Shown piece after piece: positions 25,378 to 40,846 of a stretch of DNA of 64,000 nt; the first letter of the stretch is position 1; the number at the start of each line of letters is the position of its first letter. The notes below the pieces were generated by a model. The model saw only the letters and a list, made by a program, of their open reading frames with translations, did no database searches and had not been told where the DNA came from. This stretch comes from Thermoanaerobaculia bacterium (GTDB lineage: Bacteria; Acidobacteriota; Thermoanaerobaculia; Multivoradales; Multivoraceae). The stretch lies in the NCBI GenBank assembly GCA_963664405.1, contig OY761158.1:1824001-1888000 (forward strand), in the 5' to 3' direction. Both the position numbers and the translations under genes were made by a program.

Positions 25378-26451
25378 ATGAAATGGTCCTGGAGTCTCGG
25401 CAAGATCGCCGGGATCGAGCTCAAGGTCCATGCGACCTTCTTCCTGTTGGTCGCCTGGGTGGGCTGGACTCACTGGGCGGACGGCGAATCGCTGGCGGCG
25501 GCGATCGCGGGCATTACTTTTATTCTCAGTCTCTTCGCCTGCGTGGTCCTGCACGAGCTCGGCCACGCCTTGACGGCGCGCCGCTACGGAATCCGCACCC
25601 GCGACATCGTGCTGCTACCGATTGGGGGCGTAGCCCGACTCGAGCGCATTCCTGAGGACCCGCGCCAAGAGCTCTGGGTCGCGGTGGCGGGACCCGCCGT
25701 CAACGTGGTCATCGCCACAGTTCTCTTCACCATCATCTCCTTGACCGGATCCTGGCAGCCGGTGGGCGGGCTCACCGTCAGCGGCGGTTCGTTTCTCGAG
25801 AGAATCGCCATCGCCAATGTCATTCTGGTCATCTTCAATCTGATCCCCGCCTTTCCGATGGACGGTGGACGCATGCTTCGCGCTGTTCTGGCGATGCGCC
25901 TCGAGTACGTAAAGGCAACCCAGATCGCGGCGACCGTCGGTCAGGGCCTCGCCTTCGTCTTCGCTCTGATCGGTCTCTGGGCGGCGCCGTTCCTACTCTT
26001 CATTGCCTTCTTTGTCTGGATCGGCGCCAGCCAGGAAGCCAGTATGGTCCAGATCAAGCACGCCCTCGGGGGCATCCCGGTCGGCCGGGTGATGATCACC
26101 GAGTTCGTCACTCTCCACCCGGAAGAACCGCTGACACGCGCAATAGCCCTGACTCTGGCGGGGTCCCAGAAAGACTTCCCTGTCGTTGTCGGAGACCGGG
26201 TAGTGGGCGTGCTCACGCAGTCGACATTGATGCGTGCGCTGGCGGAGAAGGGGGAGCACGCCCAGACTGCCTCGGTGATGGAGCAGAGTTTCGAGCTCGC
26301 CGACGTCTCGGAAATGATCGAGCCGGTCTTCATCCGCCTACGGGCACGTAGATGCTCAACCCTGCCGGTACTCGAAGCGGGCCGACTGGTCGGTCTCCTC
26401 ACGCTGGAGAACGTGGGCGAGTTCCTCAGCCTTCAATCTGCGATGCGCTAG
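25378..26451 (+). CDS. site-2 protease (M50) with CBS domains
   Basis: HELGH, AGPAVN, NLIPAFPMDGGR and two CBS-like C-terminal repeats. Confidence 0.92.
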   Translation: MKWSWSLGKIAGIELKVHATFFLLVAWVGWTHWADGESLAAAIAGITFILSLFACVVLHELGHALTARRYGIRTRDIVLLPIGGVARLERIPEDPRQELWVAVAGPAVNVVIATVLFTIISLTGSWQPVGGLTVSGGSFLERIAIANVILVIFNLIPAFPMDGGRMLRAVLAMRLEYVKATQIAATVGQGLAFVFALIGLWAAPFLLFIAFFVWIGASQEASMVQIKHALGGIPVGRVMITEFVTLHPEEPLTRAIALTLAGSQKDFPVVVGDRVVGVLTQSTLMRALAEKGEHAQTASVMEQSFELADVSEMIEPVFIRLRARRCSTLPVLEAGRLVGLLTLENVGEFLSLQSAMR

Positions 26452-26615
26452 TGGGCCGTAACACTCGAACGTTTAGTGGCTGAGTGAGTCATTCGTGGTC
26501 GAGATCAAGGCGCGCTGACGCAGGCATAGCGGGGACTATGTCGGGGAAGCGTAACGCAGAGATCGGCCGCGAGGGCCGCTCAGGCGCTAAACGTTTGGGT
26601 GTTACGGTCCACTAA
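26448..26615 (+). mobile_element. MITE family B: ~36-bp TIRs, TA duplication, same hairpin core as family A
   Basis: C-TA-GTGGGCCGTAACACTCGAACGTTTAG ... CTAAACGTTTGGGTGTTACGGTCCAC-TA-A; core GGCGCGCTGACGCAGGCATAG...CTATGTCGGGGAAGCGTAACGC. Begins at the stop codon of the M50 gene. Confidence 0.85.
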
Positions 26616-26645
26616 CCATTCTCAACCCACGGAGCCGTTCTAGTC

Positions 26646-27512
26646 ATGACAGCAAATCTACTCGAGGGAAAACCAGTCGCCGAAGCCGTCCTGGAAGACG
26701 TCAGACGGAGAGTCGCAGCGATGGCCCAGAAAGGGGTGACCCCAGGTCTCGCCACCGTCCTCGTCGGCGAAGACGGCGCCAGCGCCGGCTACGTGCGCAA
26801 GAAGCATGAGACCTGCCAAGACGTAGGCATCGCCTCCTTCAACTGCGAGATTCCAAGCAACGGTACGCAGGCGCAGTTGTTGGGCGAGATCGATCGACTC
26901 AATGCGGATCCGCGAGTCGATGGATTCCTCGTCCAGCACCCTCTCCCGGCCGGGTTCGACTTCAACGAGGCCCTACTCCGTATGGCCCCGGCAAAAGATG
27001 CCGACGGGCTCCACCCGGTCAATCTCGGCAAGCTCGTGTTGCAAGAGAGAGGGCCTATCCCCTGCACCCCCGCTGGTATCCAGGCGATGTTGCGTCACTA
27101 CCAGATCCCGGTCGCCGGCAAAGAGGTCGTGATCGTCGGCAGGGGGCCCACGCTCGGTCGACCGCTCTCTCTTCTTCTCACCCTGAAGCAAGAGGGCGCC
27201 AACGCCGCGGTGACCGTGGTTCACACCGGCGTTGCGGATATTTCCCAGTTCACCCGCCGGGCCGACATCATCATCGCCGCCGTCGGAGTGCCAGGGTTCG
27301 TCACTCCCGACATGGTGAACCCCGGCGCCGTCGTGATCAGCGGCGGCATCTCGTGGCAGGGGAAAAAGCTGCTAGCAGACGTAGACGAGGCCGTAGGCGA
27401 GGTCGCCAGCTGGATCACGCCTCGACTGGGAGGCGTCGGCCCGACCACCGTCGCTATGCTTCTTCGCAACACCGCAGATGCGGCGGAGGCGCGCGTGCCG
27501 ACTGGCACGTAG
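26646..27512 (+). CDS. folD: methylenetetrahydrofolate dehydrogenase/cyclohydrolase
   Basis: PGLATVLVG, YVRKK, DGFLVQHPLP, KDADGLHPVN, PCTPAG and ITPRLGGVGPTT. Confidence 0.92.
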   Translation: MTANLLEGKPVAEAVLEDVRRRVAAMAQKGVTPGLATVLVGEDGASAGYVRKKHETCQDVGIASFNCEIPSNGTQAQLLGEIDRLNADPRVDGFLVQHPLPAGFDFNEALLRMAPAKDADGLHPVNLGKLVLQERGPIPCTPAGIQAMLRHYQIPVAGKEVVIVGRGPTLGRPLSLLLTLKQEGANAAVTVVHTGVADISQFTRRADIIIAAVGVPGFVTPDMVNPGAVVISGGISWQGKKLLADVDEAVGEVASWITPRLGGVGPTTVAMLLRNTADAAEARVPTGT

Positions 27513-27666
27513 CCTCCGGAAGCGCTGCCCTCGGGGGTTTTCATTCCGCCGGAGAGCTTGAACAGTCATCCCATCGGTGTAGCTGGGGGTACAATGGTTC
27601 CAGCTAACCAGGCGCTCCAGCCCAGTCTGCGGCTTCGGCGACCATAGTCAACAAGGGGTCCAAACC

Positions 27667-28587
27667 ATGATGAGCATCAAGAGAGTCGCAAGCTTCGTTC
27701 TCCTCGCAGCAATTTTCGCCTTGCTACCGGCGGCGGCGGTCGCCCAAGGCTCGATGCGCTACACCATCGGCGTCACCGAGTTTGAGAACCAGGCCGGCTG
27801 GTACAGCTCATGGCACCTCGGCAACGCGTGGGGCACGGTAATGACCAACGCACTGCAGGAGACTGGCCGCTTCATCGTTCTGGCTGAGACCGACATGCGG
27901 GGTGCGGCGCTCGACGAGCAGGATCTGGCAGCCTCGGGCCGCACTGCACAGGGGGCAAAGGCTCCGGTCACCGGGCAACTGACCCCCGCCCAGCTCCTGG
28001 TCAAGGGCGCGATCACCCACGTACAAAGCGACACCAGCGGCGGTGGCGGCGGGATCAGGATCAAAGGCATCCGCCTCGGCGGCAAAAAAGGCAAGGCCGA
28101 GCTCAATGCGACGATCTATCTGATGGATTCAACCACAGGGCAGATCGCGGCTTCGACCAGCGTTATCGGCAAGGCAGAAAGAAAGGGTGCATCCATCGGC
28201 TATAGCAGCAGCGACTTTGGCGGCGATTTCAACGCCTACAAGAAAGACAATGTGGGCATTGCAATGGAAGATGCCATTCGTCAAGCCGTCGCGTGGCTCA
28301 CCGACCAACTCGAGAACGTGCCGTGGACGGGAACCGTGGCTATCGTGCGCGAAGGGCAGGTCTACATCAATCGCGGCAGTCGTGAGGGCGTTGCCAACGG
28401 GCAGGAGTTCATCGTCGGCGAAGCCGACGTCGTCCGGGACCCCGACACCGGCGAGGTGCTCGAGACCTTTGTAAACGAGCTCGCGCGTCTCAAAGCCACC
28501 AACGTAAGAGAGAAACTCACGATCTGCGACGTGGTCTCGGGGAACGCAGCGGCGGTCAAAAAGGGAATGACCGTCCAACTGCCCTAG
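27667..28587 (+). CDS. exported CsgG/HfaB-family protein with FlgT-like C-terminal domain
   Basis: Signal peptide; IGVTEFEN, ALQETGRFIVL, AQLLVKGAIT; C-terminal VYINRGSREG...DPDTGEVL. Confidence 0.75.
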   Translation: MMSIKRVASFVLLAAIFALLPAAAVAQGSMRYTIGVTEFENQAGWYSSWHLGNAWGTVMTNALQETGRFIVLAETDMRGAALDEQDLAASGRTAQGAKAPVTGQLTPAQLLVKGAITHVQSDTSGGGGGIRIKGIRLGGKKGKAELNATIYLMDSTTGQIAASTSVIGKAERKGASIGYSSSDFGGDFNAYKKDNVGIAMEDAIRQAVAWLTDQLENVPWTGTVAIVREGQVYINRGSREGVANGQEFIVGEADVVRDPDTGEVLETFVNELARLKATNVREKLTICDVVSGNAAAVKKGMTVQLP

Positions 28588-28609
28588 CCGAGGGGGACAC
28601 ACACCGAGC

Positions 28610-28648
28610 CCTGACGTTCTCCTGACGCTGTCCTGACGCCTGGCAGAC
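28610..28648. promoter_or_regulatory. 11-bp-period direct repeats (probable OmpR/PhoB-type operator)
   Basis: CCTGACG at 28610, 28621 and 28632, degenerate GCAGAC at 28643; lies upstream of the GGDEF/EAL gene. Confidence 0.55.
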
Positions 28649-28740
28649 AAACTACGCCTTACAGTCCTAATCGGCATGTGAGGTGGCCCGCTCGGGGAGC
28701 TGCCACCGCGAGACGGTTGAAGTTGAACGAAACGAAGGGT

Positions 28741-31700
28741 GTGGAATCGCCTAGGGAAGTAGAAGCTCGGCCAGACGGCCGCGCCGCCGAGCTGATCTAC
28801 GCCGATGACCTGACCGGTCTCTACAATCGGCGCTTCCTTCAACGGATCTTCAACGAGTACTGGGACCGTCTCACCAGCGGTGGGCAGTCGGTCTCTCTGG
28901 CGATCGTCGACTTGGACTATTTCAAGACGATCAACGACAGCTTCGGGCATCCGACCGGAGACGCCGTCCTCGTCGAGACAGGGGAATTCCTGCGCGGTTA
29001 CTGTCGTGAGAACGACTGGGTCGTCCGCTATGGTGGCGACGAGTTCCTGCTGATCTTTCCAGGGACCTCCAAGGCGGAGGCGAAAAACCTCACCGAGCGG
29101 CTCACAGACGCCTTCGGAGAAAAGGTCCTCTATTCAGCCGAGACACGGCAGGCTCTCGAGCCCCAACTGACTTTCAGCATCGGCGTGGCGACTTTTCCGG
29201 AAGACGGGGACGACGGAGAGACACTCCTGAGTCAAGCGGACAGGGCTCTTTATGCATCGAAGAGGCGAGGTGGGAACCTAGTCCGGGTCGCCGGTGAGAC
29301 CGACGATTGGCACGACAGAGCTGAGCCCTTTCTCATTTCTCCCTGCGAGGCAACGATCGGGCGGGAGAGATTGTTGGATGACATCGCCGAGTTTTACGAA
29401 AGACCGGCGACCGCGGAGCCTTCGTGGCTGTCACTGTCGGGGCCTCCGGGTATCGGAAAAAGTCGAATACTCGAGGAAGCGGCCAAGATGGGCCCGAAAT
29501 CTGAAGTCGAGCCTGTGTCGATGATCTGCCGATCAGAGACAGCCGAACAGCCCTTCGCCTCCATCGGTCATTTGTTCTCGAAAATCGGTCGCCAGAATGC
29601 TTCCCTTCTCTCGCAGTTGTGGCAAAACACCGATACCGAGCTGTACTCGACTCTTCGAGCCCTCGTAGACGGCGGCCCGCTGCCGGCTCCGGCAGACACC
29701 GAGAATAGGCCGGATCTACCCCCCCATGAAGAGATCCGCCGGGCCTTCCTCAAGGGTTTGGAGTGTCTGGTATCCGAGGGCCGATTCGTCCTGCTTCTGG
29801 ACGACTTTGGTCACTGCGACCCTTCGAGCGCGGAGGTCTTGCGCTCGGCTGTGGGCGAGGAGGGCCTCCGGTTGCGGATCCTCACTGCCCACAGCGGAGA
29901 CGAATCCTCGTACCACGACGTTGGAGCCTCCTTCCTAGCTTCCCTCGGGGAGGCGGCCTGGCTCGAGCGAAGAGAGATACCTACTCTCTCCAAAGAAGGA
30001 GTGCGAGGCCTGATCTCGGGTCTCCTCGGCGATCATCGCTCCTTTCCGGGCTTCGGCAGGCTCATCTTCGAGGCCACCGACGGCAATCCCCTCTTCGTCG
30101 AGGAAGTGCTACGCCTCGCGGTCGCCCGCGGCAGAATCCTGGACACGCAGAACGGACGGCTGGTCCAGATGATGGAGGCGAAAGAGCTTCCCAAAACCCT
30201 CGACGAAGCCATGGGTCTTCGGATGCTGACGCTCGACAAGAGTACGCGGGAGATCGTGTCGCAAGCGTCCGTCATCGGCGACGCCTTCGATCTGTCTACT
30301 CTTGTGGCGCTGCTGGGCCGTAATGAGGGTGAGACGCTGCACCTGCTGGACAAGGCGCAAGCTCAGGGTCTCCTTGCTGGAGTCGCCGACAACGACTTTT
30401 CCAACCTTCGCTTCACGACGAGCTCGTTGAGAGAGACCGCATATAGGAGTACCACTCCGGAGGAGCGAAAGCGGGTCCACCGCCAGATCGGAGAGTTGGA
30501 GGAGTCCCGATCCGGCCCCCACACCCTCAGCAAGGCAAGACAGCTCGCCCATCACTTCTCCCTGAGTGGTGAAGTCGAGAAAGCCCGCCGCTACCGAGAG
30601 CTGGCGAGGACCCTCCGTCAGAGACCTAGCCCGGATGCGCCGGTCTTGGAAGGCAGAGAGAGGCGCCCCCCTGAGGCCGGTCCCGAGGTCAACCCGCTCG
30701 ACCATGGAGGGGCGAGTGCCGGTGACTCCGCAGCCGAGGCTTCGGGAGCCGCGATCTTGGCGCCCCAGCCTGTACCGCAAACCGAACTTACCTCCGAGGA
30801 CCTTCGGATGCTTCTGCAGGCCCACTTCGGTCATGAGCTGAGGGGTACCCTTGCCGAGGCCACCGACCCCATCGCCAAAGGAGAGGAGCATACCTACCGG
30901 CAGGATCTGCTGCGGACGGGCGAGAAGATGTTCCGCGATTTCCTGATGGAGGGTGACCTGGCTTCCGCCAGAAGAGTCGTGCACTTCGTGAAGAGCTCCC
31001 GCGAGCTCGACGGAAGCGGGAAAGAGAGTGGCGGCAGAGCGCAGGACGTTCTGTCACTCCTGGCGTCGACGAACACCTTCGAAATTCTCCTATCGGATCT
31101 CCAGGCCGGGCCTGGGAGCGTCAGCCAGGAGGCCCTAGCCCTGTTGCGGGAGTTCGGGACAAGCGCGGAATCGACGCTCGGCGTGTTCGTCACTGAAACG
31201 GACGATCTCAGAGCTCGGCTGCTGGCGGCCCAGGTACTGAAGGAGATCGCAGCCGACGCGTGCAGAGGGGTCTTGGACCTCATCGCCAGTGGAGATGACC
31301 CCGTCGTCTCCCGGCGTGTCGTGAGCCTCCTGCCGGTGCTCTCGGACGACCTCGTGTCCGAGCTATCTCTTGCCGCGCGGGTGCGAAACGTGGGCGTTTT
31401 TGGCGAAGTCATCAAGATCCTCCATGGACAGCCCAGGGAGGTGCGCTGTGAAGTGCTCCTCTCCCTACTCCGATCTTCGAGCGCAGAGTTGGTGCGGCGA
31501 GGGATGCGCTACATCGGCGAATGGGATCTCAAGGAGATGAAGCTCCAGGTTCTCGATGTGCTCACCGCTTCCGACAGCCCGAAGATCCTCCATTCCGGAT
31601 GCACCGTGGTCGTTCGTTGGCACCTCACGGATGCGATCCCGAGATTGGCGAGCGTCCTGGACAAGAGGAAACCCTTTAGTTTCGGCCGAGCCTACCCAGC

Positions 31701-33681
31701 GGGGGTACGACGAGGGGCCGCTCGTACCCTGACCGCGCTCGGCACCATGGAGGCCTTCGACGTGCTGTCGAACTTCGTTAAAGACAACGACGAAGAAGTT
31801 CGGCGCATCTGCCTTGGTCTCAGTTCGGAACAGTCTCAAGCGGAAAACCTCGACATCGACGACCAGGTACCAGTGGAGTCGTGGTCTCGACGTTCCCGCG
31901 CCGAAGACCTGACGATCGAAGAGCGAGGGGCCGAGGCGGTCAGACTACTCATCGTCGATAGCCACCGTGGAGAAGCCAAGCGTCTCAAGCGTGCACTCGA
32001 GATGAGCACAACGGCTGAAATCGAAGTGTCCCAGGCGGACGGTCTCGAAGATACAGGAGCGGACTATGACGTCATGGTCGTAGGGTCGAGGCGGCGCACA
32101 CAGCTTCAGCCGGAATACCTCGAGCAGCTGTGGAGTAGGAGCCATACCCCCATTGTCGTGATGGCGAAAGACAGCGTTGAAGGGAGGGAACTGCAGGCAC
32201 GGTGCGAGGGCGTACAAGCCTTTATCGAGACCAAGAAGTGGAGTCCGCCTCTCCTCGTGCTCACCATCCTCAACGCACTCTCCGAGCACCGTCTTCTCAA
32301 ACAGCTCGACGCAGCCCAAAAAGAAGCCATCTTCCTGGCGACCCACGATGCTCTCACCGGTCTTCACAATAGGAATGCCTTCCGAAAGGAGCTACGGAAG
32401 GGCATAAACCGCGCGACGCGCAATCGCGAGCACCTGGCGGTCGTTGTTGTCAACCTCGACGACTTCCGAGGAGCGAACAAAGTGCTCGACCGGACCAGCC
32501 AGGACAAGTTACTCAAGATGGTGGCGGAACGCCTCTCGAAGGCTACTCGCAAGAGCGACAGCGTTGCCTGCGTAGGAGCTGAGCAATTCGCTGTCATGCT
32601 CGAGGAGCTGAGCAAAGACGACGGCGGTCCCAGGGTTGTCCAGAAGCTTCGCGAAACCATGGCCCAGCCCTTCGACGCCGGGGAGAGGCAGATCAAACTG
32701 GCCACGCGAATCGGGATGGCCGTCTTCCCGGGTGATGGCAGAGACGCTGACAGTCTAATGACGCACGCAGAGGAAGCGGCGTGCCTCAGTCAGTACAACA
32801 AGGTTCGTTACTTCTCCGGGGCGCCGGACCCCGCGGCCGAGCTTAGTCTTCGCTTCGAGGAAAGGTTTCGGGAGGCTGTGGAGAACAAGGCATTCTCCAT
32901 CCACTATCAGCCGATCCGAGGCACCATCGGCAACAATCTGGCCGGAGCGGAGGCCCTCATAAGGTGGACAGATCCGAACGGCGACTTCATTCCACCCGAG
33001 AAGTTCATCCCCCTTGCAGAACAGAGTGGACTGATCGTCCCGCTCGGAGCTTGGGTCCTGGAAACTGCTTGTAAGCAGTGGCAGGAGTGGCGCAAGGCCG
33101 GTCTCGTTTCGGTTCCGCTATCGGTGAATATTTCCGGTGAGCAGATCAGGAGTCCCGAGCAGGTGGGAAGACTCGCCACTCTGATCAGAGGCCTGGAACT
33201 GCCAACCTCCATGCTTCGACTCGAGATCACCGAACGCACCATCCTGGAAGACGATGAGGCCACAATTGCCGCGCTTACGATTCTCAAGTCCATGGGCATA
33301 GGCCTCAACCTCGACGACTTCGGCACCGGGTATTCATCTCTTCAGCTACTGCGAAGACTTCCCGTCGACAGGATCAAGATCGACCGGAGTTACGTCCAGG
33401 ATGCGGGGTCCGGGTCCGACACAGCGACCCTGACGGCGGCGATCATCTCGATGGCCCACCGTCTCAAGTTGAAGGTGGTCGCCGAAGGAGTGGAGACCCG
33501 ACGACAGTGGGACTTCCTGCGCGAGAATGACTGCGATGAGTTCCAGGGGCACCTCTTCAGCAAAGCCTTGTCTCCGGAGAAGCTGCTTCGGCTGCTGGAA
33601 GCAGAGAGGCGCGTGGCCGACCGGGACGACGACTCGAAGGCAAGAGGAATCGTGAGAGTTGGCCGTTTGAGCGAGGCCTGA
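28741..33681 (+). CDS. multidomain c-di-GMP enzyme: GGDEF - AAA(STAND-like) - HEAT-like - pseudo-REC - degenerate GGDEF - EAL
   Basis: DDLTGLYNRR...RENDWVVRYGGDEF; Walker A GPPGIGKS; LLLDDF; GNPLFVEE; HDALTGL..VGAEQF; AEALIRW, LDDFGTGYSSL, VVAEGVE. Start uncertain (28678 or 28741). Confidence 0.88.
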   Translation: MESPREVEARPDGRAAELIYADDLTGLYNRRFLQRIFNEYWDRLTSGGQSVSLAIVDLDYFKTINDSFGHPTGDAVLVETGEFLRGYCRENDWVVRYGGDEFLLIFPGTSKAEAKNLTERLTDAFGEKVLYSAETRQALEPQLTFSIGVATFPEDGDDGETLLSQADRALYASKRRGGNLVRVAGETDDWHDRAEPFLISPCEATIGRERLLDDIAEFYERPATAEPSWLSLSGPPGIGKSRILEEAAKMGPKSEVEPVSMICRSETAEQPFASIGHLFSKIGRQNASLLSQLWQNTDTELYSTLRALVDGGPLPAPADTENRPDLPPHEEIRRAFLKGLECLVSEGRFVLLLDDFGHCDPSSAEVLRSAVGEEGLRLRILTAHSGDESSYHDVGASFLASLGEAAWLERREIPTLSKEGVRGLISGLLGDHRSFPGFGRLIFEATDGNPLFVEEVLRLAVARGRILDTQNGRLVQMMEAKELPKTLDEAMGLRMLTLDKSTREIVSQASVIGDAFDLSTLVALLGRNEGETLHLLDKAQAQGLLAGVADNDFSNLRFTTSSLRETAYRSTTPEERKRVHRQIGELEESRSGPHTLSKARQLAHHFSLSGEVEKARRYRELARTLRQRPSPDAPVLEGRERRPPEAGPEVNPLDHGGASAGDSAAEASGAAILAPQPVPQTELTSEDLRMLLQAHFGHELRGTLAEATDPIAKGEEHTYRQDLLRTGEKMFRDFLMEGDLASARRVVHFVKSSRELDGSGKESGGRAQDVLSLLASTNTFEILLSDLQAGPGSVSQEALALLREFGTSAESTLGVFVTETDDLRARLLAAQVLKEIAADACRGVLDLIASGDDPVVSRRVVSLLPVLSDDLVSELSLAARVRNVGVFGEVIKILHGQPREVRCEVLLSLLRSSSAELVRRGMRYIGEWDLKEMKLQVLDVLTASDSPKILHSGCTVVVRWHLTDAIPRLASVLDKRKPFSFGRAYPAGVRRGAARTLTALGTMEAFDVLSNFVKDNDEEVRRICLGLSSEQSQAENLDIDDQVPVESWSRRSRAEDLTIEERGAEAVRLLIVDSHRGEAKRLKRALEMSTTAEIEVSQADGLEDTGADYDVMVVGSRRRTQLQPEYLEQLWSRSHTPIVVMAKDSVEGRELQARCEGVQAFIETKKWSPPLLVLTILNALSEHRLLKQLDAAQKEAIFLATHDALTGLHNRNAFRKELRKGINRATRNREHLAVVVVNLDDFRGANKVLDRTSQDKLLKMVAERLSKATRKSDSVACVGAEQFAVMLEELSKDDGGPRVVQKLRETMAQPFDAGERQIKLATRIGMAVFPGDGRDADSLMTHAEEAACLSQYNKVRYFSGAPDPAAELSLRFEERFREAVENKAFSIHYQPIRGTIGNNLAGAEALIRWTDPNGDFIPPEKFIPLAEQSGLIVPLGAWVLETACKQWQEWRKAGLVSVPLSVNISGEQIRSPEQVGRLATLIRGLELPTSMLRLEITERTILEDDEATIAALTILKSMGIGLNLDDFGTGYSSLQLLRRLPVDRIKIDRSYVQDAGSGSDTATLTAAIISMAHRLKLKVVAEGVETRRQWDFLRENDCDEFQGHLFSKALSPEKLLRLLEAERRVADRDDDSKARGIVRVGRLSEA

Positions 33682-33706
33682 AAACCGGCCGCGCTCTGGA
33701 GCGCGG
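33682..33706 (-). terminator. probable intrinsic terminator of the ABC importer operon
   Basis: Hairpin CCGCGCTC-TG-GAGCGCGG (33689-33706) followed on the minus strand by CCGGTTTT; sits between convergent genes. Confidence 0.5.
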
Positions 33707-33713
33707 ACGAAGT

Positions 33714-33878
33714 CTAGACCAGCGTTTCCAAGGTTCGTGCACATAGCTCGAGGTCATTCTGTTCGCTGGCCAGGCGCGGCGACGCAGGCATATTGGGCAA
33801 TATGTCGAGGAGGCGCAACGCCGCCAGCGGGCAGAAGGGGCCGAGATGTGTACGCGAACTTTGGAGACGCTGGTCTAG
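33714..33878 (+). mobile_element. MITE family A, intergenic copy at a stop codon (net +161 bp)
   Basis: CTAGACCAGCGTTTCCAAGGTTCG...CGAACTTTGGAGACGCTGGTCTAG; the right CTAG contains the TAG stop of the ABC ATPase gene. Confidence 0.92.
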
Positions 33879-34855
33879 AGATCGAAATGGCAGGCCACGG
33901 TGTGGGCTTGCTCGCCGGGGGCCGCGACTTCGCGTAGCGTCGGCACCTCGGTACGACAGCGGTCCTCGGCATGGGGGCAGCGGGGGTGGAAGTGGCAGCC
34001 GGTCGGCGGATCGATCGGCGACGGGACGTCACCCTCGAGGACCTGGAAGCCGGAGCGCTTGGTAGGGTCCGGAGCCGGGATCGCCGCAATCAGGGCCTGG
34101 GTGTAAGGGTGTTTGGGGCGTTCGTAGACGTCGTCCGCGCCCGCCGTCTCGACGATCTTACCGAGATACATGATGGCGATGCGATCGGAGACGTGCTTTA
34201 CCACTGCCAGATCGTGAGAGATGAAAAGGTAGGAGAGCCCGAGATCCTTCTGCAACTCGAGCATCAAGTTGAGGATTTGACTCTGAATCGAAACGTCGAG
34301 GGCGGAAACCGGCTCGTCACAGACAACTAGCTTGGGATCGAGCGCGATCGCGCGGGCAATGCCAATGCGCTGGCGCTGCCCGCCCGAGAACTCGAAGGGG
34401 AAGCGATCCAACGAGGTCTCCGGCAGTCCGACCTTCGCAAGGAGTGCGTGGACAAGCTCTTTTCGGTCCTTTTCGGTACCGACCTTGTGGACGACGTAGG
34501 GCTCCTCGAGGATCTTGGCCACGCTATGCCGAGAGTTGAGCGAGTCGGCGGGGTCCTGAAAAATCATCTGCAGCTCACGCCGGACGCCTTTCAGCTCGCG
34601 ACGGCCCAGTTTCACCAAGTCGGTTCCATCGAAGACGACACTCCCGGCCTGGGGACGGAGCAGACGGACGATCGAGCGGCCCAAGGTGGACTTGCCGCAT
34701 CCGGACTCCCCGACCAAGCCGAGGGTCTCCCCCGCACCCACTTCCAAAGCAACATCATCGACGGCCTTACAGACCGCGGTCGCGGTCATGAACACACCAC
34801 CGCGCACCGGGAAGTAGGTCTTGAGGCCGTTGACCTCGAGCAGTGGGGAGCTCAT
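33875..34855 (-). CDS. oligopeptide ABC transporter ATP-binding protein (OppF-like)
   Basis: GESGCGKST, FSGGQRQR, CDEPVSALD and oligo_HPY tail (HPYT, GCHFHPRC). Confidence 0.93.
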   Translation of the reverse strand: MSSPLLEVNGLKTYFPVRGGVFMTATAVCKAVDDVALEVGAGETLGLVGESGCGKSTLGRSIVRLLRPQAGSVVFDGTDLVKLGRRELKGVRRELQMIFQDPADSLNSRHSVAKILEEPYVVHKVGTEKDRKELVHALLAKVGLPETSLDRFPFEFSGGQRQRIGIARAIALDPKLVVCDEPVSALDVSIQSQILNLMLELQKDLGLSYLFISHDLAVVKHVSDRIAIMYLGKIVETAGADDVYERPKHPYTQALIAAIPAPDPTKRSGFQVLEGDVPSPIDPPTGCHFHPRCPHAEDRCRTEVPTLREVAAPGEQAHTVACHFDL

Positions 34856-35907
34856 GCGTCGCCGTCTCTCCGCGTGCCGGCGATCTCCCGCCAGCGAAAG
34901 CAGCTGACCTGGTGATCTCCCTCCACCACCTGGAGCTCGGGCAGCTCCGCGGCGCAGCGCTCTTCGCGGTGCGGACAGCGATTCTCGAAACGACAGCCCG
35001 AGGGCAGGTCCAGCAGGCCCGGCACCATACCCTCGATCGTGTGAAGAGGCTGTTTGCGCGGATTTTCCAATCGGGGAATGGCCTCGAGTAGGCCGCGCGT
35101 GTAGGGATGACGCGGCTCGGCAAAGATCTCTTCTACCGACCCGGTCTCGGCGATGCGCCCCGCATACATGACCACCACGTCATCGCAGGTCTGAGCGATC
35201 ACTCCCAGATCGTGAGTAATGAGGAGGATCGACAGCCCCATCTCTTCTTGCAAGTCGCTCATCAGCTTCAAGACCTGAGCCTGGATGGTCACATCCAACG
35301 CGGTGGTCGGCTCGTCGGCGATGATGAGAGCTGGGCTATTGGCCAGCGCGATGGCGATCACTACGCGCTGGCGCATGCCGCCGGACAGCTGATGAGGGTA
35401 CTCGGCGTAACGGATCTCCGGCGACGGGATGCCGACCTGCCCCAGTAGCTCGATCGACCTGCGCATTGCATCCTGCGCTGTCAGGTCCTGATGCAACAGC
35501 AGCGCCTCGGAAAGCTGTCGACCTACCGGGTGCACCGGATTGAGCGCCGTCATCGGCTCCTGGAAGATCATGCCGATGCGAGCGCCGCGGATCTTTCCCA
35601 TCTCCTCCAGAGACAGATCGAGCAGATTCTCGCCGTCGAGGAGCACTTCGCCACCCAGAATCTGCCCCATGGGCTGGGGCAGAAGACGTGTGATCGAAAG
35701 TGCGGTGACCGTCTTGCCACAGCCCGACTCCCCCACCAAGCCAACCGTCTTGCCGCGAGCGACTTTGAAACTGACGCCGTCGACAGCGTTCACCCGCCCC
35801 ACATCGGTGTCGAAGGCGGTGACCAGGTTGCGCACCTCGAGAAGATCGTCCGAGGTGGCGCTCCGATCTGCGGTTGCGTCACTCACTCCCGGGCCGGTAC
35901 TTGTCAT
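34852..35907 (-). CDS. oligopeptide ABC transporter ATP-binding protein (OppD-like)
   Basis: [29 protein letters not shown] and GCRFENRC. Confidence 0.93.
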
Positions 35908-38143
35908 AGGTGAAGACGCCGGGCGGGAATGTCTTCCCTGACCGCTTCGCCGCCCGGGTCTCTTCCTTCAAATCCTCGTCGATCCAGTGCACCCAGTGAT
36001 CCTCGTAGTGGCCGGCCAGCTTCACACTGAAATCGTCGGGCCAACCCACCCAGCGCCACGACCCCATGCGCAGAAAGGGCTGCACGAAGCCGGGAATGAA
36101 GATCGCCGCTTCGTCGACGATCTCCTCCATCTGACGCGACAGCTCGAGCATCTCCCCTGCATCGTCCGAGCCACGATAACGCTCGATCAGCGGATCGAGC
36201 TCACGGCTGGCGAAGGAGTGAAGGTTGTTGGTCTGGGTCTTGACCTTGCGTTCCGGGTTCACAGACCCGTCGGCAAGAAACGCTTTATCGTAGGCGTTCA
36301 CCGAATGGTAGGTCTCCCAGTAACGCGGGTACATCTCCGGACTGACCGCGAAAGCGGTGAAGACGAGATCGTGCTTCTTCTCTTGCGCCTTCTTGAACGC
36401 AGCGGTGGCGTCGAGGACCTCGAGCCGGTACTCCAGACCCGCCTGCGCTGCTTCTTCTCTCAGGATGGTGAGGATGTCCTTGAAGCTCTGGTAACCGGTG
36501 GTCAAGGTAAAAGAGAGGCGCTGCCCTTGGGCGTTGACCAGGATGCCGTCAGACCCACGCTCGTGGAACCCGGCCTTGGCAAAGCTCTCGAGGGCTTTCT
36601 CGACCGAGTAGGAGCGAGCCTCGAGCGTAGGATGAGTGAACTCTCCGTACCCATCCGAGGAGGTCCGCATGCGGGTGTAGGCACCGCGGAAGTACTTTTC
36701 GATCACCAAGTCCCAGTTGGTGGCGAAGTGGAGACCCTGGCGAATGTCGCGGTCCTCCAGCAGCGGCTGCGCCGTGTTGATCCAGAGTCCCCAAGTCGGC
36801 CGCGGGACGTCGTTATAGAACTCGTGCTTGTGAACATAGCCGTCCCGAACCAGAGGATGGTCGTCGGCGAGCTTGTCGTACCAATACTCGGGCTCTCGCA
36901 TCCGCGAACTATCCAGCTCCCCACGCTTGAACACCTCGAAGGCCTTCGCTTTGTCGCGAATGATCACGAAGTGAATGCGCTCGGGGTTGAACCTGTAGCG
37001 CCAGAACTTGTTCTCCCTCGCCCACCAGTTGTCGACGTGGGTGAAGGTGAGCGATCGTCCTTTGTGAATGTTCTCTGGACGGATCTCATAGGCACCCGTT
37101 GTCGGCATGAAACGCCACTGATAACGGTCGACGAAATCGTCGCCTAGACTCTTGAAGAAGTGCCGCGGAAGAGGCCGTAGCTCGAGGACGCGAGCGTTCA
37201 TGTCGGGCTTGGCCTCGGGCACCGAGACCGAGAAAGTGAGCTCGTCGTAGCGGGCTACCTCGGTGAAGTTGCGGTTGAAGAAATTGTTCGAATACGGCGC
37301 ACGGATGTATTTCGACTGGTAGAAGAAGAACGCGAAGAGAGCATCATCGGTGGTGACCGGATGCCCGTCCGACCAGCGAGCAGCGGGGTTGAGTCGGACA
37401 TACACCGTTCTCGTCTCGCGATCGATCGCCCACTCCTTCGCCAAGGCGGGGTAGTAGCGGTGCCCGTTGGGCCCGATATTGGTTACATTGGGATGGCGTT
37501 GGCCATAGGTGTAGAGCGTTTCGTCCTGTAGATAGCTGCGGAACGAGCCGTTGGCATCGGGGCCAACGGTACGTAGGGTGCGCGGAAAATCCGCCAGCGC
37601 CATAAATAGGGTGCCGCCCCTCTTGGCCTCCGAAGACCCGATATCGGGCAGGTCCATTCCGTCGTCCCATTCGAGGTCGGCGGGAATGTCCTCCGGTGTC
37701 CCGAAGCGAAAGAGCTTGGGAAACTCTCCTGCCGCCTGCCGCGAGTCGAGCTCCTCCTGGGTGATCTCTCCGCGCTCGAAGGCCTCGCGTACTCGAGGAG
37801 GCATCGAGACCTTGGTGCGGTAGAACTCCTCGATCTCCGCGGTGTTGTCTCTCCCTAGGTCGGGAAAGTCCATGTCTGCGCCCGCGTCGCCTGCTCCACA
37901 ACCGATCAGGAATGACCCCAGCGACACCGCCGAGATGAAGGTCCAGAGCGCTAGACCAGCGTTTCCAAAGTTCGCGCACATATCTCGGGCCCTTCTGCCC
38001 GCTGGCGTCGTTTCGCCTCCTCGACATATTGCCCAATATGCCTGCGTCAGCGCGCCTAGCCAGCGAACAGAATGCCCTCGAGCTATGCAGCACGAACTTC
38101 GGAAACGCTGGTCTAGATCTCGATTTGGCATTTGTGCCCTCAT
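35879..38143 (-). CDS. family-5 extracellular solute-binding lipoprotein (YejA-like) with a 54-aa in-frame MITE insert in its signal peptide
   Basis: AKRGGTL, ARWSDGHPVT.DD, TGAY, NTAQPLLEDRDIRQ. Removing the insert gives MRAQMPNRDLALWTFISAVSLGSFLIGC (lipobox). Confidence 0.85.
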   Translation of the reverse strand: MRAQMPNRDLDQRFRSSCCIARGHSVRWLGALTQAYWAICRGGETTPAGRRARDMCANFGNAGLALWTFISAVSLGSFLIGCGAGDAGADMDFPDLGRDNTAEIEEFYRTKVSMPPRVREAFERGEITQEELDSRQAAGEFPKLFRFGTPEDIPADLEWDDGMDLPDIGSSEAKRGGTLFMALADFPRTLRTVGPDANGSFRSYLQDETLYTYGQRHPNVTNIGPNGHRYYPALAKEWAIDRETRTVYVRLNPAARWSDGHPVTTDDALFAFFFYQSKYIRAPYSNNFFNRNFTEVARYDELTFSVSVPEAKPDMNARVLELRPLPRHFFKSLGDDFVDRYQWRFMPTTGAYEIRPENIHKGRSLTFTHVDNWWARENKFWRYRFNPERIHFVIIRDKAKAFEVFKRGELDSSRMREPEYWYDKLADDHPLVRDGYVHKHEFYNDVPRPTWGLWINTAQPLLEDRDIRQGLHFATNWDLVIEKYFRGAYTRMRTSSDGYGEFTHPTLEARSYSVEKALESFAKAGFHERGSDGILVNAQGQRLSFTLTTGYQSFKDILTILREEAAQAGLEYRLEVLDATAAFKKAQEKKHDLVFTAFAVSPEMYPRYWETYHSVNAYDKAFLADGSVNPERKVKTQTNNLHSFASRELDPLIERYRGSDDAGEMLELSRQMEEIVDEAAIFIPGFVQPFLRMGSWRWVGWPDDFSVKLAGHYEDHWVHWIDEDLKEETRAAKRSGKTFPPGVFTYDKYRPGSE
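37951..38116 (-). mobile_element. MITE family A, full copy, net +162 bp (54 codons), in frame in a coding sequence
   Basis: CTAG at both ends, ~21-bp TIR GACCAGCGTTTCC(A/G)AAGTTCG, central CATATTG-GG-CAATATG hairpin. Confidence 0.93.
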
Positions 38144-38153
38144 AGGTCGCCAG

Positions 38154-39245
38154 TCACATATAGACCGTGAACTTCTTCGGGTCGAAGGCCTCACGCACGG
38201 CCTCGCCGACGAAGTTCACCAGGGTCAAGATGAAGACCAGGGTGACGAAAGCGGAAGAGATGATCCAAGGGGAAGTGGTCAGGCTCGCCGTTCCCTGCTT
38301 GAGCAGCTCGCCGATCGAGGGAGTCGGCGGCGGAAGCCCCCAGCCGAGGAAGTCGAGGGCGGTCACGGCGACGATCGCGTTGATGACGGTCAGCGGCACG
38401 AAGGTCACGATCGTCGAAAGCACATTGGGAATGATGTGGCTGAAGATGATCCGCGAAGTTGAAGCACCGAGAACGATGGCAGCCGCCGTGTAATCCCTCT
38501 CCTTCTCGCGATAGGTGGCGGTGCGCATGTAGTAGGTCATCGATGTCCACGAGAAGAGCACCATGATGGCGAGCAGAATCGTGATTCGGGTCGGGATATC
38601 GAAGCTGGTCGGAATCACCGAGAAGACGATGATCACCATGTAGAGGAAAGGGATATTCGACCAGATCTCGATCAGACGCTGCACAAGAAGATCGAAGACG
38701 CCTCCGAAATAGCCCATCATGCACCCTAGAGAAATCCCGATCAGATAGGTCAGCGACATGAAGGCCAGCGCAAAAAGAATAGCGGTGCGAAAGCCGAAGG
38801 CGAGGCGCGCAAAGATGTCGCGGCCGGTCGAGTCGGTGCCCAGATAGTGCCTCGAGGCCAGCGAAGGCGGCGCAGGCTTGAACACTCCTTCGTAGGCATC
38901 GTTCTCATAGGCGTCGTAGGGAACGAGAGGCATGAGCACCAGGTTCTCGCCGCCTTCGCGCTCGAATCTCCGTTTGAGATCGCGATAGTCGACCGGAGTC
39001 AGCGCATCTACACCCACCGATCCGAACTCGTCACCCAGCCGCACCCGAGTGTAGGTGGGGAACGACCACTCACCCTCGTAGCGCACCGCCAGTGCACGAC
39101 TATTGATGAACACCTCACCCACCAAAGAGAGAGCGATAAAGACCACCAGGATCAGAAACGAAAAATAGCCACGTCGTATTTCTCTGAAGCGCTTCAACTT
39201 CTTTGCAGTAAGAGGGTTGAGCTTCATCGCCCAGGTCCGGCTCAA
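38154..39245 (-). CDS. peptide ABC transporter permease (YejE/OppC-like)
   Basis: HYLGTDSTGRDIFARL, EAA-like loop DYTAAAIVLGAS and LDFLGWGLPPPTPS. Confidence 0.9.
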   Translation of the reverse strand: MSRTWAMKLNPLTAKKLKRFREIRRGYFSFLILVVFIALSLVGEVFINSRALAVRYEGEWSFPTYTRVRLGDEFGSVGVDALTPVDYRDLKRRFEREGGENLVLMPLVPYDAYENDAYEGVFKPAPPSLASRHYLGTDSTGRDIFARLAFGFRTAILFALAFMSLTYLIGISLGCMMGYFGGVFDLLVQRLIEIWSNIPFLYMVIIVFSVIPTSFDIPTRITILLAIMVLFSWTSMTYYMRTATYREKERDYTAAAIVLGASTSRIIFSHIIPNVLSTIVTFVPLTVINAIVAVTALDFLGWGLPPPTPSIGELLKQGTASLTTSPWIISSAFVTLVFILTLVNFVGEAVREAFDPKKFTVYM

Positions 39246-40267
39246 GAGAAGCGAATGCGCGGATCGATCGCGGCAACGAGCGCGTCGGAGATGATGTTGC
39301 CCACCAGCAGCGCCAAGCTCGACGCGAAGACAACCCCCATGACCACCGGGTAGTCTCGATCGAAGACGGCGGTCAGGCCGAGCAGACCGAAGCCGTTGAT
39401 GTCGAAGATGGTCTCGATCAGAAACGAACCGCTGACGATGAGCAAGACGTTCTGGCCGAAGGTGGTGGCGATCGGAATCAGCGAATTTCGTAACGCATGC
39501 CCGGTGACCGCCTTGCGAAACGAAACCCCCTTGGCGACGGCGGTGCGGACATAGTCGGCAGACAGGTTGTCCATGAGGTGGTTCTTCATCAACTGCGTGG
39601 TTACCGCAAAGCTACCGACGAGATAGCAGCACAACGGCAGGACCGCATGGTGCAACACATCCAAGACCTTGCCCCAGGGACTCAGAAGGTCGAAGTCGAA
39701 ACCGATGAACCCACCCATCGGGAACCACTCGAGGCGAGCGGCAAAAAAGAAAAGCAGAAGACTTCCCATCACGTAAGGAGGAACCGCATACCCCATGAAG
39801 ACGAAGATCGAGGTGACGTTGTCCATCGCACTGCGATGTTTGATTGCTTTCACCACCCCGAGCGGGATGCACACCGAGTAGGTGATGATTACCGTGGCCA
39901 AGCCGAAGAACAGAGAGATGGGCAACCGAGAGCGCATGATGTCGACTACCGGCTCGTTATACCGGTAGGACGAGCCAAGATCACCTCGGAGGACCTTGCC
40001 CAACCATTCGACATAGGAGACGAGCCACGGTTTGTCGAAGCCGTAGTACTCCTTCAGTTGCTGGATCTGCTCATCCGAGAGCGCCTGTCCCTGCCCGGAG
40101 AGCGAATTCGAGCTGCCGCCGCCAGTAGCATCGAGCTGTTGCGCTTCCATGATTGCCCGCTCGAGCGGACCTCCCGGCACCACCCGGGTGATCAGGAAAA
40201 CGACAATTGTGATGCCAAGTAGGGTCGGGGGAATTAGCAAGAAGCGGCGGATGAAGTAGTCCCGCAT
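39242..40267 (-). CDS. peptide ABC transporter permease (YejB/OppB-like)
   Basis: YFIRRFLLIPPTL, YGFDKP, GDLGSS, DYVRTAVAKG and DPRIRF. Confidence 0.92.
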   Translation of the reverse strand: MRDYFIRRFLLIPPTLLGITIVVFLITRVVPGGPLERAIMEAQQLDATGGGSSNSLSGQGQALSDEQIQQLKEYYGFDKPWLVSYVEWLGKVLRGDLGSSYRYNEPVVDIMRSRLPISLFFGLATVIITYSVCIPLGVVKAIKHRSAMDNVTSIFVFMGYAVPPYVMGSLLLFFFAARLEWFPMGGFIGFDFDLLSPWGKVLDVLHHAVLPLCCYLVGSFAVTTQLMKNHLMDNLSADYVRTAVAKGVSFRKAVTGHALRNSLIPIATTFGQNVLLIVSGSFLIETIFDINGFGLLGLTAVFDRDYPVVMGVVFASSLALLVGNIISDALVAAIDPRIRFS

Positions 40268-40300
40268 GGACCACGGGAGGCTAGCACAGCAGGCCCCGAA

Positions 40301-40606
40301 TCAAGGGTGGCCCAGCCCGGGAGTCGGGCGCGCTCCTAGCCCTTCCTGTCGCTGTCGCCAGCGTTCTCGCGCTTTCTCCGCTTCTTCTTCACGGTTCTTG
40401 GGCGCAACGGTGGCCACCAGCCGAGACAGCAGCTGCGCGGTGACCTCGGCGATAGCGTCTACGGCTTCTTCGAAGGCGGCCTCATTGGCGCGCGACGGCT
40501 TGGTAGAGCCGCTCACCTTGCGAACATACTGGAGCGCTGCGGATCGGACTTCCTCATCCGTGGCGGCGGGCTCGTAATTGTGGAGAGTACGGATATTGCG
40601 GCACAT
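40301..40606 (-). CDS. DUF2277-family small protein
   Basis: MCRNIRTLHNYEPAATDEEVRSAALQYVRKVSG...NEAAF...PKNREEE. Confidence 0.85.
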   Translation of the reverse strand: MCRNIRTLHNYEPAATDEEVRSAALQYVRKVSGSTKPSRANEAAFEEAVDAIAEVTAQLLSRLVATVAPKNREEEAEKARERWRQRQEGLGARPTPGLGHP

Positions 40607-40615
40607 TCTCCAATA

Positions 40616-40781
40616 CTAGACCAGCGTTTCCAAAGTTCGTGTGCAATAGCTCGAGGTCATTCTGTTCGCTGGCCAGGCGCGCCGACGCAGGCATATTGGG
40701 CAATATGTCGAGGAGGCGAAACGCCGCCAGCGGACAGAAGGGGCCGAGATATGTGCGCGAACTTTGGAAACGCTGGTCTAG
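40616..40781 (+). mobile_element. MITE family A, full copy (net +162 bp) in a divergent intergenic region
   Basis: CTAGACCAGCGTTTCCAAAGTTCG...CGAACTTTGGAAACGCTGGTCTAG. Confidence 0.93.
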
Positions 40782-40846
40782 GCCAAGTCGCCTGCGAGCC
40801 TGGTAGCCTGCGTGCACCAACCCAGACACCCAACAGGGGGCAAGCC

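Follow-up and report, generated by a model that had tools for sequence, protein, structure and literature searches.

We describe here a group of short hairpin elements that came to attention in a 64,000-nt stretch of a Thermoanaerobaculia genome (contig OY761158.1, positions 1,824,001 to 1,888,000; referred to below as the window), and in particular a 162-nt element, B, which is related through its centre, and not through its ends, to a second family, A, with several copies in the same window. We are confident of the descriptive part of the account, namely that these are miniature transposable elements with inverted repeats (MITEs) forming a widespread hairpin superfamily of the IS630 type, in which a conserved, structured and strand-specific core is combined with reassorted ends. 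On balance we also lean towards the complete account, in which the core of the MITE acts as a folded single strand, most likely RNA; for the folded form taken by itself, RNA seems to us quite probable. Throughout, the + strand is the sense that reads GACGCAGG...GUCGAGGAG or GACGCAGG...GTCGAGGAG.

The first-pass annotation of this DNA placed the B element correctly at 26448-26615, an interval that includes some flanking sequence; the exact span is 26451-26612. Its 26-nt end recurs in inverted orientation with 3 mismatches, a result matched in none of 100 shuffles, and all 3 mismatches become G.T pairs if the + strand folds on itself. The annotation also proposed that B and A are nearly equal in length and share a homologous centre beneath terminal inverted repeats (TIRs) that have nothing in common. 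The A end occurs at 8 sites in the window, the full A copies there are 159-160 nt long against 162 nt for B, and the centre of B had been quoted correctly for the window copy. In a BLAST comparison of B with the genome, positions 41-110 of B (70 nt) matched copies of family A at 80-84% identity and E values down to 8e-14, and the homology of the two centres is not a matter of chance. It reaches beyond the core as first quoted, to about 110 internal nt in families A, C, D and E. The ends of A and B are indeed unrelated (left-end identity 0.42, with a shuffled baseline of about 0.53), but this cannot be said of the ends of B, C, D, E, F and H, which all start with GTGKNNNGT and look like distant relatives.

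The strand specificity is apparent from the folds. Treated as RNA, the window copy of B gives -108.3 kcal/mol on the + strand (z -14.2) and -65.7 on the - strand (z -6.0). Every family consensus folds into one full-length hairpin, and the + strand is more stable than its complement as RNA (+ versus -, in kcal/mol: A -103/-79, B -105/-68, C -85/-59, D -101/-68, E -101/-73, F -113/-100 and G -94/-91); the consensuses used for folding and for comparison of the arms were script-made. The + strand folds better because its mismatches are G.U rather than A.C. Between the left and right arms of the consensuses 41 positions are G.U on the + strand and 11 are A.C (37 and 4 without family G), a count that includes ends which cannot be aligned between families. 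In other lineages the + strand was the stabler one in 44 of 45 elements, and the outer arms of 42 such elements, lying beyond the pattern used to find them, hold 102 G.U against 41 A.C, with 30 elements leaning towards G.U, 3 reversed and 9 tied.

Covariation was assessed in an alignment, A1, of 33 cores with less than 86% mutual identity, taken from the genome, 10 relatives and 14 labelled records of metagenome-assembled genomes (MAGs). RNAalifold found 26 pairs, 22 of them with double changes, which bears out the compensatory changes first noticed between A and B. Paired cells amount to 91.0% (69.0% after shuffling), and the covariation score of 0.525 compares with 0.151 for shuffled alignments, none of 500 reaching it, and with 0.09-0.14 when partners were slid by 1-3 columns. 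Among non-Watson-Crick cells there are 83 G.U and 7 A.C, or 52 and 7 when the invariant G.U of columns 56-73 is set aside. Of the 33 rows, 14 were gathered by means of a pattern in which GCAGGCRTA...TAYGTCGASGAG is fixed; the stems outside this pattern, and the searches made without it (BLAST of the genome and of relatives, the profile search and scans with a covariance model, R1), are unaffected by it.

From its base upward the core consists of a lower stem, CAAGGCG, a 5-bp stem, tandem G.A, an isolated pair, a GCA/GA loop and an apical stem. The isolated pair switches within A1 between C-G (28 rows), G-C (4) and U-G (1), and the apical stem takes the forms CATATTG/CAATATG, CATAG/CTATG, CAGAT/ATCTG, GAAGAT/ATCTTT, GCGTAC/GTACGT and CGATG/CATCG. 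The tandem G.A, the bulged A or C and the invariant G.U are typical of protein or ligand sites. A kink-turn, which has a bulge of three nucleotides and, directly next to it, tandem sheared G.A pairs between two helices, was considered and rejected: the tandem G.A is present, but in the A1 structure the opposite strand has four more unpaired letters and a covarying C-G intervenes. A check against Rfam 15, which the first-pass annotation had recommended, showed no family matching the core and no overlap with the elements, in window positions 26000-41500 (E up to 10), 8 loci of other lineages (E up to 1) or 10 loci of a Geobacter-labelled order considered below (E up to 1).

Ends and interiors have different histories, as the suggestion of exchangeable ends had implied. 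Identity among six family consensuses is 0.54 and 0.58 for the ends (0.51-0.53 when shuffled), 0.65 for the arms and 0.79 for the core, and over the 351 pairs formed by 27 elements from several genomes (24 of these elements are 159-162 nt long), end similarity and arm similarity are weakly correlated (Spearman 0.19). Individual mosaics are clear. An element of genome G004 carries a C-type end (24/24 identical; 1.00 between C3 and the G004 end), and its arm is of A type, with an identity of 0.88 to A and 0.62 to C; its end is 0.42 identical to that of A. In genome G009 an F-type end (0.92) is joined to an arm with an identity of 0.58 to F and 0.77 to A, and A and D have ends at 0.50 and arms at 0.92. 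Within the genome of the window, foreign cores of A or B type occur in a B copy (C1:2185689) and an F copy (C1:6065934). Since the core is common to different end-types, ectopic recombination or gene conversion through it would reassort ends and interiors; gene conversion or a double crossover through the common interior would be the simplest mechanism.

The genome (G000) is a single contig of 6.78 Mb with 62.6% G+C, and it contains 271 core loci when searched by BLAST with two cores and 266 when searched with an nhmmer profile. Only 139 and 30 loci carry A or B ends, respectively, on both sides, and 72 carry neither end. The 266 profile matches cluster into A (130), B (35), C (23), D (16), E (11), F (8), G (6) and H (1), plus variants of A, about a dozen A copies carrying an 80-nt insert. 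The core is thus not restricted to one TIR lineage, at least eight end-types being present here and others elsewhere. Inverted ends flanked by TA were found for 207 of the 266 matches, with lengths of 159-162 nt, or 177-191 nt for G. Among 158 full copies the target shows C at -3 in 152 cases and G at +3 in 148 cases; the TA is not an independent result, being a requirement of the script that located the boundaries. Mobility is indicated by five family A copies of the genome that are identical by BLAST, and by the absence of the B copy from its locus in contigs of two other runs, described below.

Several other arrangements were observed among these copies. About a dozen A copies have a second repeat of about 85 nt (TAGGAGCSTG...GAGTAGTTCTCAGGCGGGGATGGGCCGGAGAACGGGCC...GGGGCKAGG) nested at a CTAGG site of their left arm, and this repeat also occurs alone or in tandem beside other elements; examples of it lie at G000:C1 706555-706800, 2209137-2209380 and 3403646-3403900, and it adjoins G copies at 1787430 and 6040800. 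An optional extra hairpin of 13-17 nt (GCGGGGRCGCCYAGYC) follows GAGGAG in variants of A, C and G, for example at C1:87537, 481108 and 1787394. Two A copies are split in the apical loop by the same 2.5-kb insert (C1:6272418-6275121 and 6758845-6761548), with open reading frames (ORFs) of 308 and 399 aa that resemble, by eye only, a tyrosine recombinase and an IS91-type transposase; other than these two split copies, no long pairs of family ends occur in the genome. Elements of different families abut at C1:4615047 and 5723400.

Flanks of the form C-TA-G are those of IS630-family elements. IS630 copies of genomes G034, G082, G058, G112 and G116 lie in this same context. The right end of a 1201-bp IS630 of G082, with a DDE_3 gene, reads GTCTCCTGTAACAGTGGTTCGCAGCATAAG, and the C-type MITE end reads GTGTCCTGTAACAGTGGTTCGTTGCATAAA; the two share an exact match of 18 nt by BLAST and about 28 of 32 positions by eye. 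That end match was the only one when 27 MITEs were compared by BLAST with 7 IS630 elements, and no interior derived from a parent insertion sequence was detected. The GTG/GTC..TGT style of end recurs in other IS630s from the phylum, and the B-type end has only the GTGG..GT start in common with the IS630 ends of G116. Judged by sequence, the ends of the elements are IS630-family TIRs, which makes the group a MITE superfamily and not a new kind of transposon.

A statistical association points in the same direction as the ends. Across 151 genomes drawn from the phylum, DDE_3 was found in 30 of 52 core-positive and 28 of 99 core-negative genomes (odds ratio 3.5, p 7e-4, not corrected for kinship); the 151-genome tallies include the unpublished G092, and the tally for Y1_Tnp given below also includes G067. 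Two candidate partners were rejected, the genome's own IS630 copies, with ends that differ from those of families A-H, and the IS630 of G034, with ends that differ from the MITE ends local to that genome. In G082 two elements with the core lie directly against one end of an IS630 copy in head-to-tail arrangement, with CTAG junctions in common (L174:2124-2353 and L175:1054-1283).

The core extends well beyond this genome. A BLAST search with family A matched only the central part, in 13 of 40 relatives belonging to at least five families of the order, and model R1 matched 52 of the 151 genomes. A pattern scan over 185,579 species genomes yielded at least 112 loci, and the labels among the matches listed include Thermoanaerobaculia and other Acidobacteriota, several deltaproteobacterial groups, Planctomycetota, Nitrospiraceae, Spirochaetaceae, Actinomycetota, Sporomusaceae, Auribacterota and Peribacteria, among others. 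The labels of MAGs may be erroneous, and some short contigs (such as those labelled Thorarchaeota or Peribacteria) may be mis-binned. Four loci, namely the two matches of a viral scan together with L073 and L081, look like chance matches to coding regions without a hairpin and were dropped; Limnocylindrales, Acidimicrobiia and viruses are therefore not counted as carriers. In other lineages the arms differ and track host composition while the core is retained. A search of plasmids with a type II element gave no match, and low-copy genomes of the phylum showed degenerate hairpins and no conserved neighbouring gene. Two adjacent genes recurred, each in a pair of lineages: a YqeY-like gene 70-79 nt after the element (L069:128-574 and L151:1621-2076, two unrelated lineages) and a PsiE-domain gene adjoining a short variant in two others (L038:6800-7279 and L196:2041-2943); with about 40 loci considered, both may be due to chance.

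A different setting was found in the order of the Geobacter-labelled MAG G043. The exact pattern occurs in 42 of 121 genomes of this order, and its reversed control in none; one genome has 23 matches and most have 1-3. Ten loci from low-copy genomes were inspected. At five of them the motif is co-oriented with a gene carrying Sacchrp_dh_NADP and Sacchrp_dh_C domains, the centre of the core lying 70-79 nt before its start, and at two it is co-oriented with, and centred 69 nt before the start of, an arginine decarboxylase gene; the other three have other contexts. From its domains we take the Sacchrp_dh-family gene to be carboxyspermidine dehydrogenase, which together with arginine decarboxylase would represent polyamine synthesis. 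The seven leaders align as a 120-nt hairpin with 45 pairs, 12 showing double changes, and in the alignment the hairpin ends between a few and about 20 nt 5' of the Shine-Dalgarno sequence. Model R1, built without these leaders, scores them at 27-38 bits, and orthologous leaders are kept across at least five genomes. The motif in this order is thus a candidate cis-regulatory leader with conserved structure, orientation and distance, a combination found at these seven loci and in the G043 order only, and binding to it is predicted. The co-oriented position before genes implies that the + strand is the functional one and makes RNA its likely form.

Two further arrangements concern the same motif. 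In two genomes of the Geobacter-labelled order, at L193:640-735 and L194:647-742, a second, inverted element lies just past the 3' end of the Sacchrp_dh-family gene, an arrangement that resembles a MITE-bracketed gene. At G236:C1:2612089, 2612207 and 2612325 three core matches 118 nt apart on one strand form a tandem array, and the matches in that genome number 16 forward and 7 reverse.

Part of this motif had been sighted earlier. Aklujkar et al. (2009) listed, as one of many multicopy sequences of a single genus, a Geobacter "predicted short RNA element" (the Gmet_R1005 family) comprising 24 multicopy, intergenic elements near lysine- and arginine-related genes (PMC2700814). Read in reverse complement, its published 19-nt palindrome GRCGTAGCGCTGCTACGCC equals the apical stem GGCGTAGCAGCGCTACGTC in genomes of the G043 order. 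Membership of the Geobacter element rests on these 19 nt, and the apical stem of the window's B copy is a different, covarying one. The Geobacter element resembles the motif of that order in its central palindrome, its multiple copies and its intergenic position, but in the passages of that paper which present it, it is read on the other strand and is given no structure, function or link to transposon ends or to other phyla. Literature searches for the two core words together, for MITEs with the same interior and different ends, for Acidobacteria MITEs and for the Geobacter locus tags produced no description beyond this one. The original statement that the system matches no described family is nearly true, with the reservation that the Geobacter element had been listed without function. 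None of the three outcomes that the first-pass annotation had named as refuting its reading was obtained: covariation holds in the larger alignment, no Rfam family matches, and the core occurs with at least eight end-types.

Some indication of where selection acts comes from rare variants in resident copies of families A-D. Transitions that make G.U number 62 and those that make A.C number 78, a symmetric pattern. In the same copies the core is no less variable than the arms, with 8.2 rare variants per 1000 sites in the core, 6.6 in the arms and 14.1 in the ends (the last possibly inflated by alignment edges). The G.U asymmetry therefore does not stem from mutation bias or from selection on copies already in place, and is set in the lineages that get copied. 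An even orientation relative to genes, documented below, is in line with this. It would follow from this argument that the core aids MITE proliferation.

The account that we favour can be put together as follows. The element is a non-autonomous IS630-type MITE of about 160 bp and one hairpin, which inserts into CTAG and duplicates the TA. Its outer 25 nt or so on each side are the TIRs of one of several IS630 lineages, which would be mobilised by a transposase acting in trans, and its interior is a structured module with, at the apex, an irregular purine-rich helix (a stem, tandem G.A, covarying pair, GCA/GA loop, invariant G.U and covarying apical stem) that is conserved in sequence across phyla. 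This module would act as a folded single strand, most likely + sense RNA, to which a protein or small ligand most likely binds. In the G043 order the motif is a fixed 5' leader of presumed polyamine-synthesis genes; in the genome described here it is MITE cargo, which would be retained because only lineages that preserve the fold proliferate. Anatomy, covariation, strand asymmetry, the IS630-type ends and target, mosaicism, distribution and leader position are all observed, and it is inferred from them that the fold is one of RNA and not of ssDNA, that it has a binding partner and that it promotes the spread of the MITE.

A number of results weigh against this account. The asymmetry of the fold is also present with DNA parameters (window B copy, + strand -50.2, - strand -33.9), which is compatible with single-stranded DNA (ssDNA), and because the pattern fixes part of the core, the invariance of the pattern letters is partly built into A1 and into the loci of the pattern scan. 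In tandem gene contexts of G000 the elements are co-oriented in 55 cases and anti-oriented in 58, so that fixed orientation before one pathway is not seen in this genome, and more elements lie in convergent than in divergent gaps (78 and 38); both sets of counts depend on a rough gene map of our own making, in which 81% of the genome is covered. Promoter-like or terminator-like sites were not found in the B and A copies scanned. Outside the Geobacter-labelled order the genes downstream of the elements are diverse, with no recurrent family, and within that order the seven leaders could be old MITE insertions retained through the chances of descent. No partner IS630 with A-H ends occurs in this genome, its two DDE_3 copies having other ends (TAGTAC...), and 5 of 16 high-copy genomes have no DDE_3 match.

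Other explanations start from some of these same results. The folded strand could be ssDNA, the elements being REPIN-like hairpins moved by an HUH enzyme of Y1 or RAYT type, or recognised at replication forks, with the core as the recognition hairpin. The persistence of the asymmetry with DNA parameters and the lack of a matching DDE partner would suit such a role, and Y1_Tnp has 13 matches in the genome, 12 above the cut-off, in frames of about 300-440 aa from stop to stop. There is also a weak replication-strand bias, the + strand lying on the leading strand in 102 cases and on the lagging-sequence strand in 152 (p 0.002), with origin and terminus placed by cumulative GC skew alone and replichores of unequal size (4.0 and 2.8 Mb). 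Against this, Y1_Tnp is not associated with the core across the 151 genomes (33 of 52 core-positive and 61 of 99 core-negative, p 0.86, again uncorrected for kinship), 11 of the 16 high-copy genomes lack it, and only one of six Y1_Tnp loci has an element within 1.5 kb, for which reasons mobilisation of the REPIN/RAYT type was rejected. Moreover, the elements have the symmetric C-TA-G flanks of IS630, an actual IS630 carries a TIR that matches one end-type, and the co-oriented 5' leader of one order fits RNA. We regard the ssDNA explanation as improbable. One called Y1_Tnp ORF has 303 aa, and an example of the domain lies at 6395600-6395854 (L167), with no link to the hairpin elements.

The core might also be functionless, if the ends of one ancestral MITE diverged as they followed different transposases while its centre was homogenised by gene conversion and compensatory changes arose by template switching in quasi-palindromes. 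Gene conversion between families is visible in the foreign cores and mosaics, the letters of the apical loop are identical in five end-types of the genome, and the rare variants reveal no extra constraint on the core. Yet the unpaired letters and the G.U remain constant in hosts with AT-rich arms and in other phyla, beyond the reach of gene conversion with these copies, orthologous leaders are conserved, and template switching, which gives perfect pairs on both strands, leaves the G.U excesses in A1 and in the outer arms unexplained; this origin appears unlikely to us. A similarly low probability attaches to a double-stranded site in the middle of the element, bound or bent by a host protein that brings the ends together in the manner of the IHF site of Correia elements. 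It would account for the exactly central position of the core in elements of fixed length, for its indifference to gene orientation and, with about 108 bp between the ends, less than the persistence length of DNA, for a need to bend, but it gives no reason for covarying stems or for G.U on one strand only; the apical stem changes its sequence freely while pairing is kept, and leader position and orientation in the other order again fit RNA. 

Returning to a core that acts as RNA, a more specific conjecture can be made, which we consider somewhat unlikely as a whole. The core may be an undescribed cross-phylum regulatory RNA, an aptamer or protein-binding motif, captured by IS630-type MITEs and carried between genomes and phyla under changing ends, with the fold also required for copying. 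It might respond to polyamines, a possibility raised by its fixed place before the arginine decarboxylase and Sacchrp_dh-family genes. A fold required for copying would imply a single-stranded, structure-dependent step in what is regarded as "cut-and-paste" mobilisation.

In the window the B copy has an M50-peptidase/CBS gene on one side and a folD-like gene on the other, and its features are listed in Table 1 together with those of the A copies. In a contig from run X11, which represents a related population, position 26450 is followed after one extra letter by 26627; the sequence there is GCGCTAAC, that is, a single TA, a TAA stop and no element. A 6700-nt contig from run X6 skips 163 nt at the locus but has 13 other letters between the two sides, and it shows the absence of the B copy, not a clean empty site. 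The insertion falls in the stop codon of the M50-peptidase/CBS gene and restores one, TAA in the relative becoming TAG here (window 26449-26451), because the element starts with G after the TA. The family B consensus reads GTCGAGGAAG where the window copy has GTCGGGGAAG, and position 26544 is A in every contig of three other runs that covers it. Run X19, a metatranscriptome available as contigs only, contributes a 226-nt contig over 26555-26780 and two shorter pieces; nothing is drawn from these as evidence for RNA, since neither strand nor ends nor level can be read from contigs, and the pieces may derive from carried-over DNA. Stretches of the locus without cover in runs X5 and X19 were left out.

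Table 1. Coordinates, in the window, of element B with its parts and flanks, and of family A copies.
Feature	Position	Strand	Remarks
Upstream M50-peptidase/CBS gene	ORF 25378-26451		stop codon spans the element B junction
Left TA of duplicated target	26449..26450		from sequence; TA plus first G of element B forms the TAG stop of the M50-peptidase/CBS gene upstream
Family B hairpin MITE, 162 nt	26451..26612	+	entire length folds as a single hairpin; n=35 copies in genome
Left TIR of element B	26451..26476	+	26 nt; IS630-type end by sequence, starts GTGG
R1 match (core and inner arms) in element B	26472..26572	+	94.5 bits, E 1.7e-27
Conserved core of element B	26506..26559	+	alignment A1 and structure; CAAGGCG, 5-bp stem, tandem G.A, single covarying C-G, GCA/GA loop, apical stem-loop, CAACG bulge
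Apical stem GGCATAG / CTATGTC, loop CGGGGA, of element B	26523..26542	+	covaries between families
Right TIR of element B	26587..26612	-	3 mismatches with left TIR, all G.T on + strand
Right TA of duplicated target	26613..26614		folD-like gene starts 32 nt onward, at 26646
Family A copy with the same core	33717..33875	+	R1 100.8 bits at 33736-33836
Family A copy, core on - strand	37954..38113	-	R1 97.1 bits at 37993-38093 (-)
Family A copy, identical to 4 others in genome	40619..40778	+	R1 103.7 bits
Family A copy, truncated in apical loop	40859..40940	+	R1 17.4 bits at 40879-40959
Second truncated family A copy	starts 2925		from sequence

Several known repeats invite comparison. The Correia or nemis elements of Neisseria are likewise short, TA-flanked MITEs with inverted ends of about 26 nt and no matching transposase in the host, and their transcripts form long hairpins that are cut by RNase III; they differ in being confined to one genus and in having an IHF site, and not a cross-phylum structured motif, at their centre, and no set of unrelated end-types round one core is described for them in the sections of PMC10969869 that deal with these repeats or, to our knowledge, elsewhere. 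The BOX elements of pneumococci are also small and modular and join a structured part to further modules, but they are tandem boxA-B-C arrays of one genus and not a core within exchangeable transposon ends (treated in the same sections of PMC10969869). The ERIC or IRU sequences of enterobacteria act on mRNA once transcribed, with an effect of RNase E (PMC10969869, same sections). They are imperfect palindromes of about 127 bp, conserved far beyond one species, for which the mobilising enzyme is unknown; unlike the present core, which spans phyla within the ends of several IS630-type lineages, they have one end-type and occur in one bacterial class. REPIN-RAYT systems resemble the elements described here as hairpin repeats that form replicating populations, show compensatory pairing and are thought to use a single-stranded substrate, but a REPIN consists of two short REP hairpins, headed by GTAG or CGTC, and is linked to a flanking RAYT gene, whereas here there are C-TA-G flanks and no link to Y1_Tnp. 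With respect to the leaders, the spermidine riboswitch of Salvail et al. (2023) is similarly an RNA before polyamine-related genes; as presented in the parts of that paper concerned with its fold, it is a SAM-I variant with a four-way junction (PMC10853860). It is the only validated spermidine riboswitch known to us and is unrelated to the motif, which is a single irregular hairpin with no Rfam match.

The wider meaning of the finding lies in an inversion of the usual picture. It is usually the ends that define a MITE, and the interior is treated as junk. Here conservation is inverted, the ends being at background similarity and the centre a covarying, strand-specific, cross-phylum structure without an Rfam model. 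By comparison, about 98% of MITE clusters (95% identity) are reported to be confined to one genus in a census of 183,232 genomes (bioRxiv 10.1101/2024.01.18.576219). With the covariance model, repeats that number several hundred per genome can be annotated in environmental lineages, those labelled Acidobacteriota among them, and the G043 order offers a candidate leader of polyamine genes that can be tested in bacteria amenable to culture. Should the core be a working RNA module, the elements would spread a regulatory part and provide a natural example of transposons that carry a riboswitch-like motif; if its fold is needed for copying, the mobilisation of IS630-type elements would include a structure-dependent step that is so far unknown.

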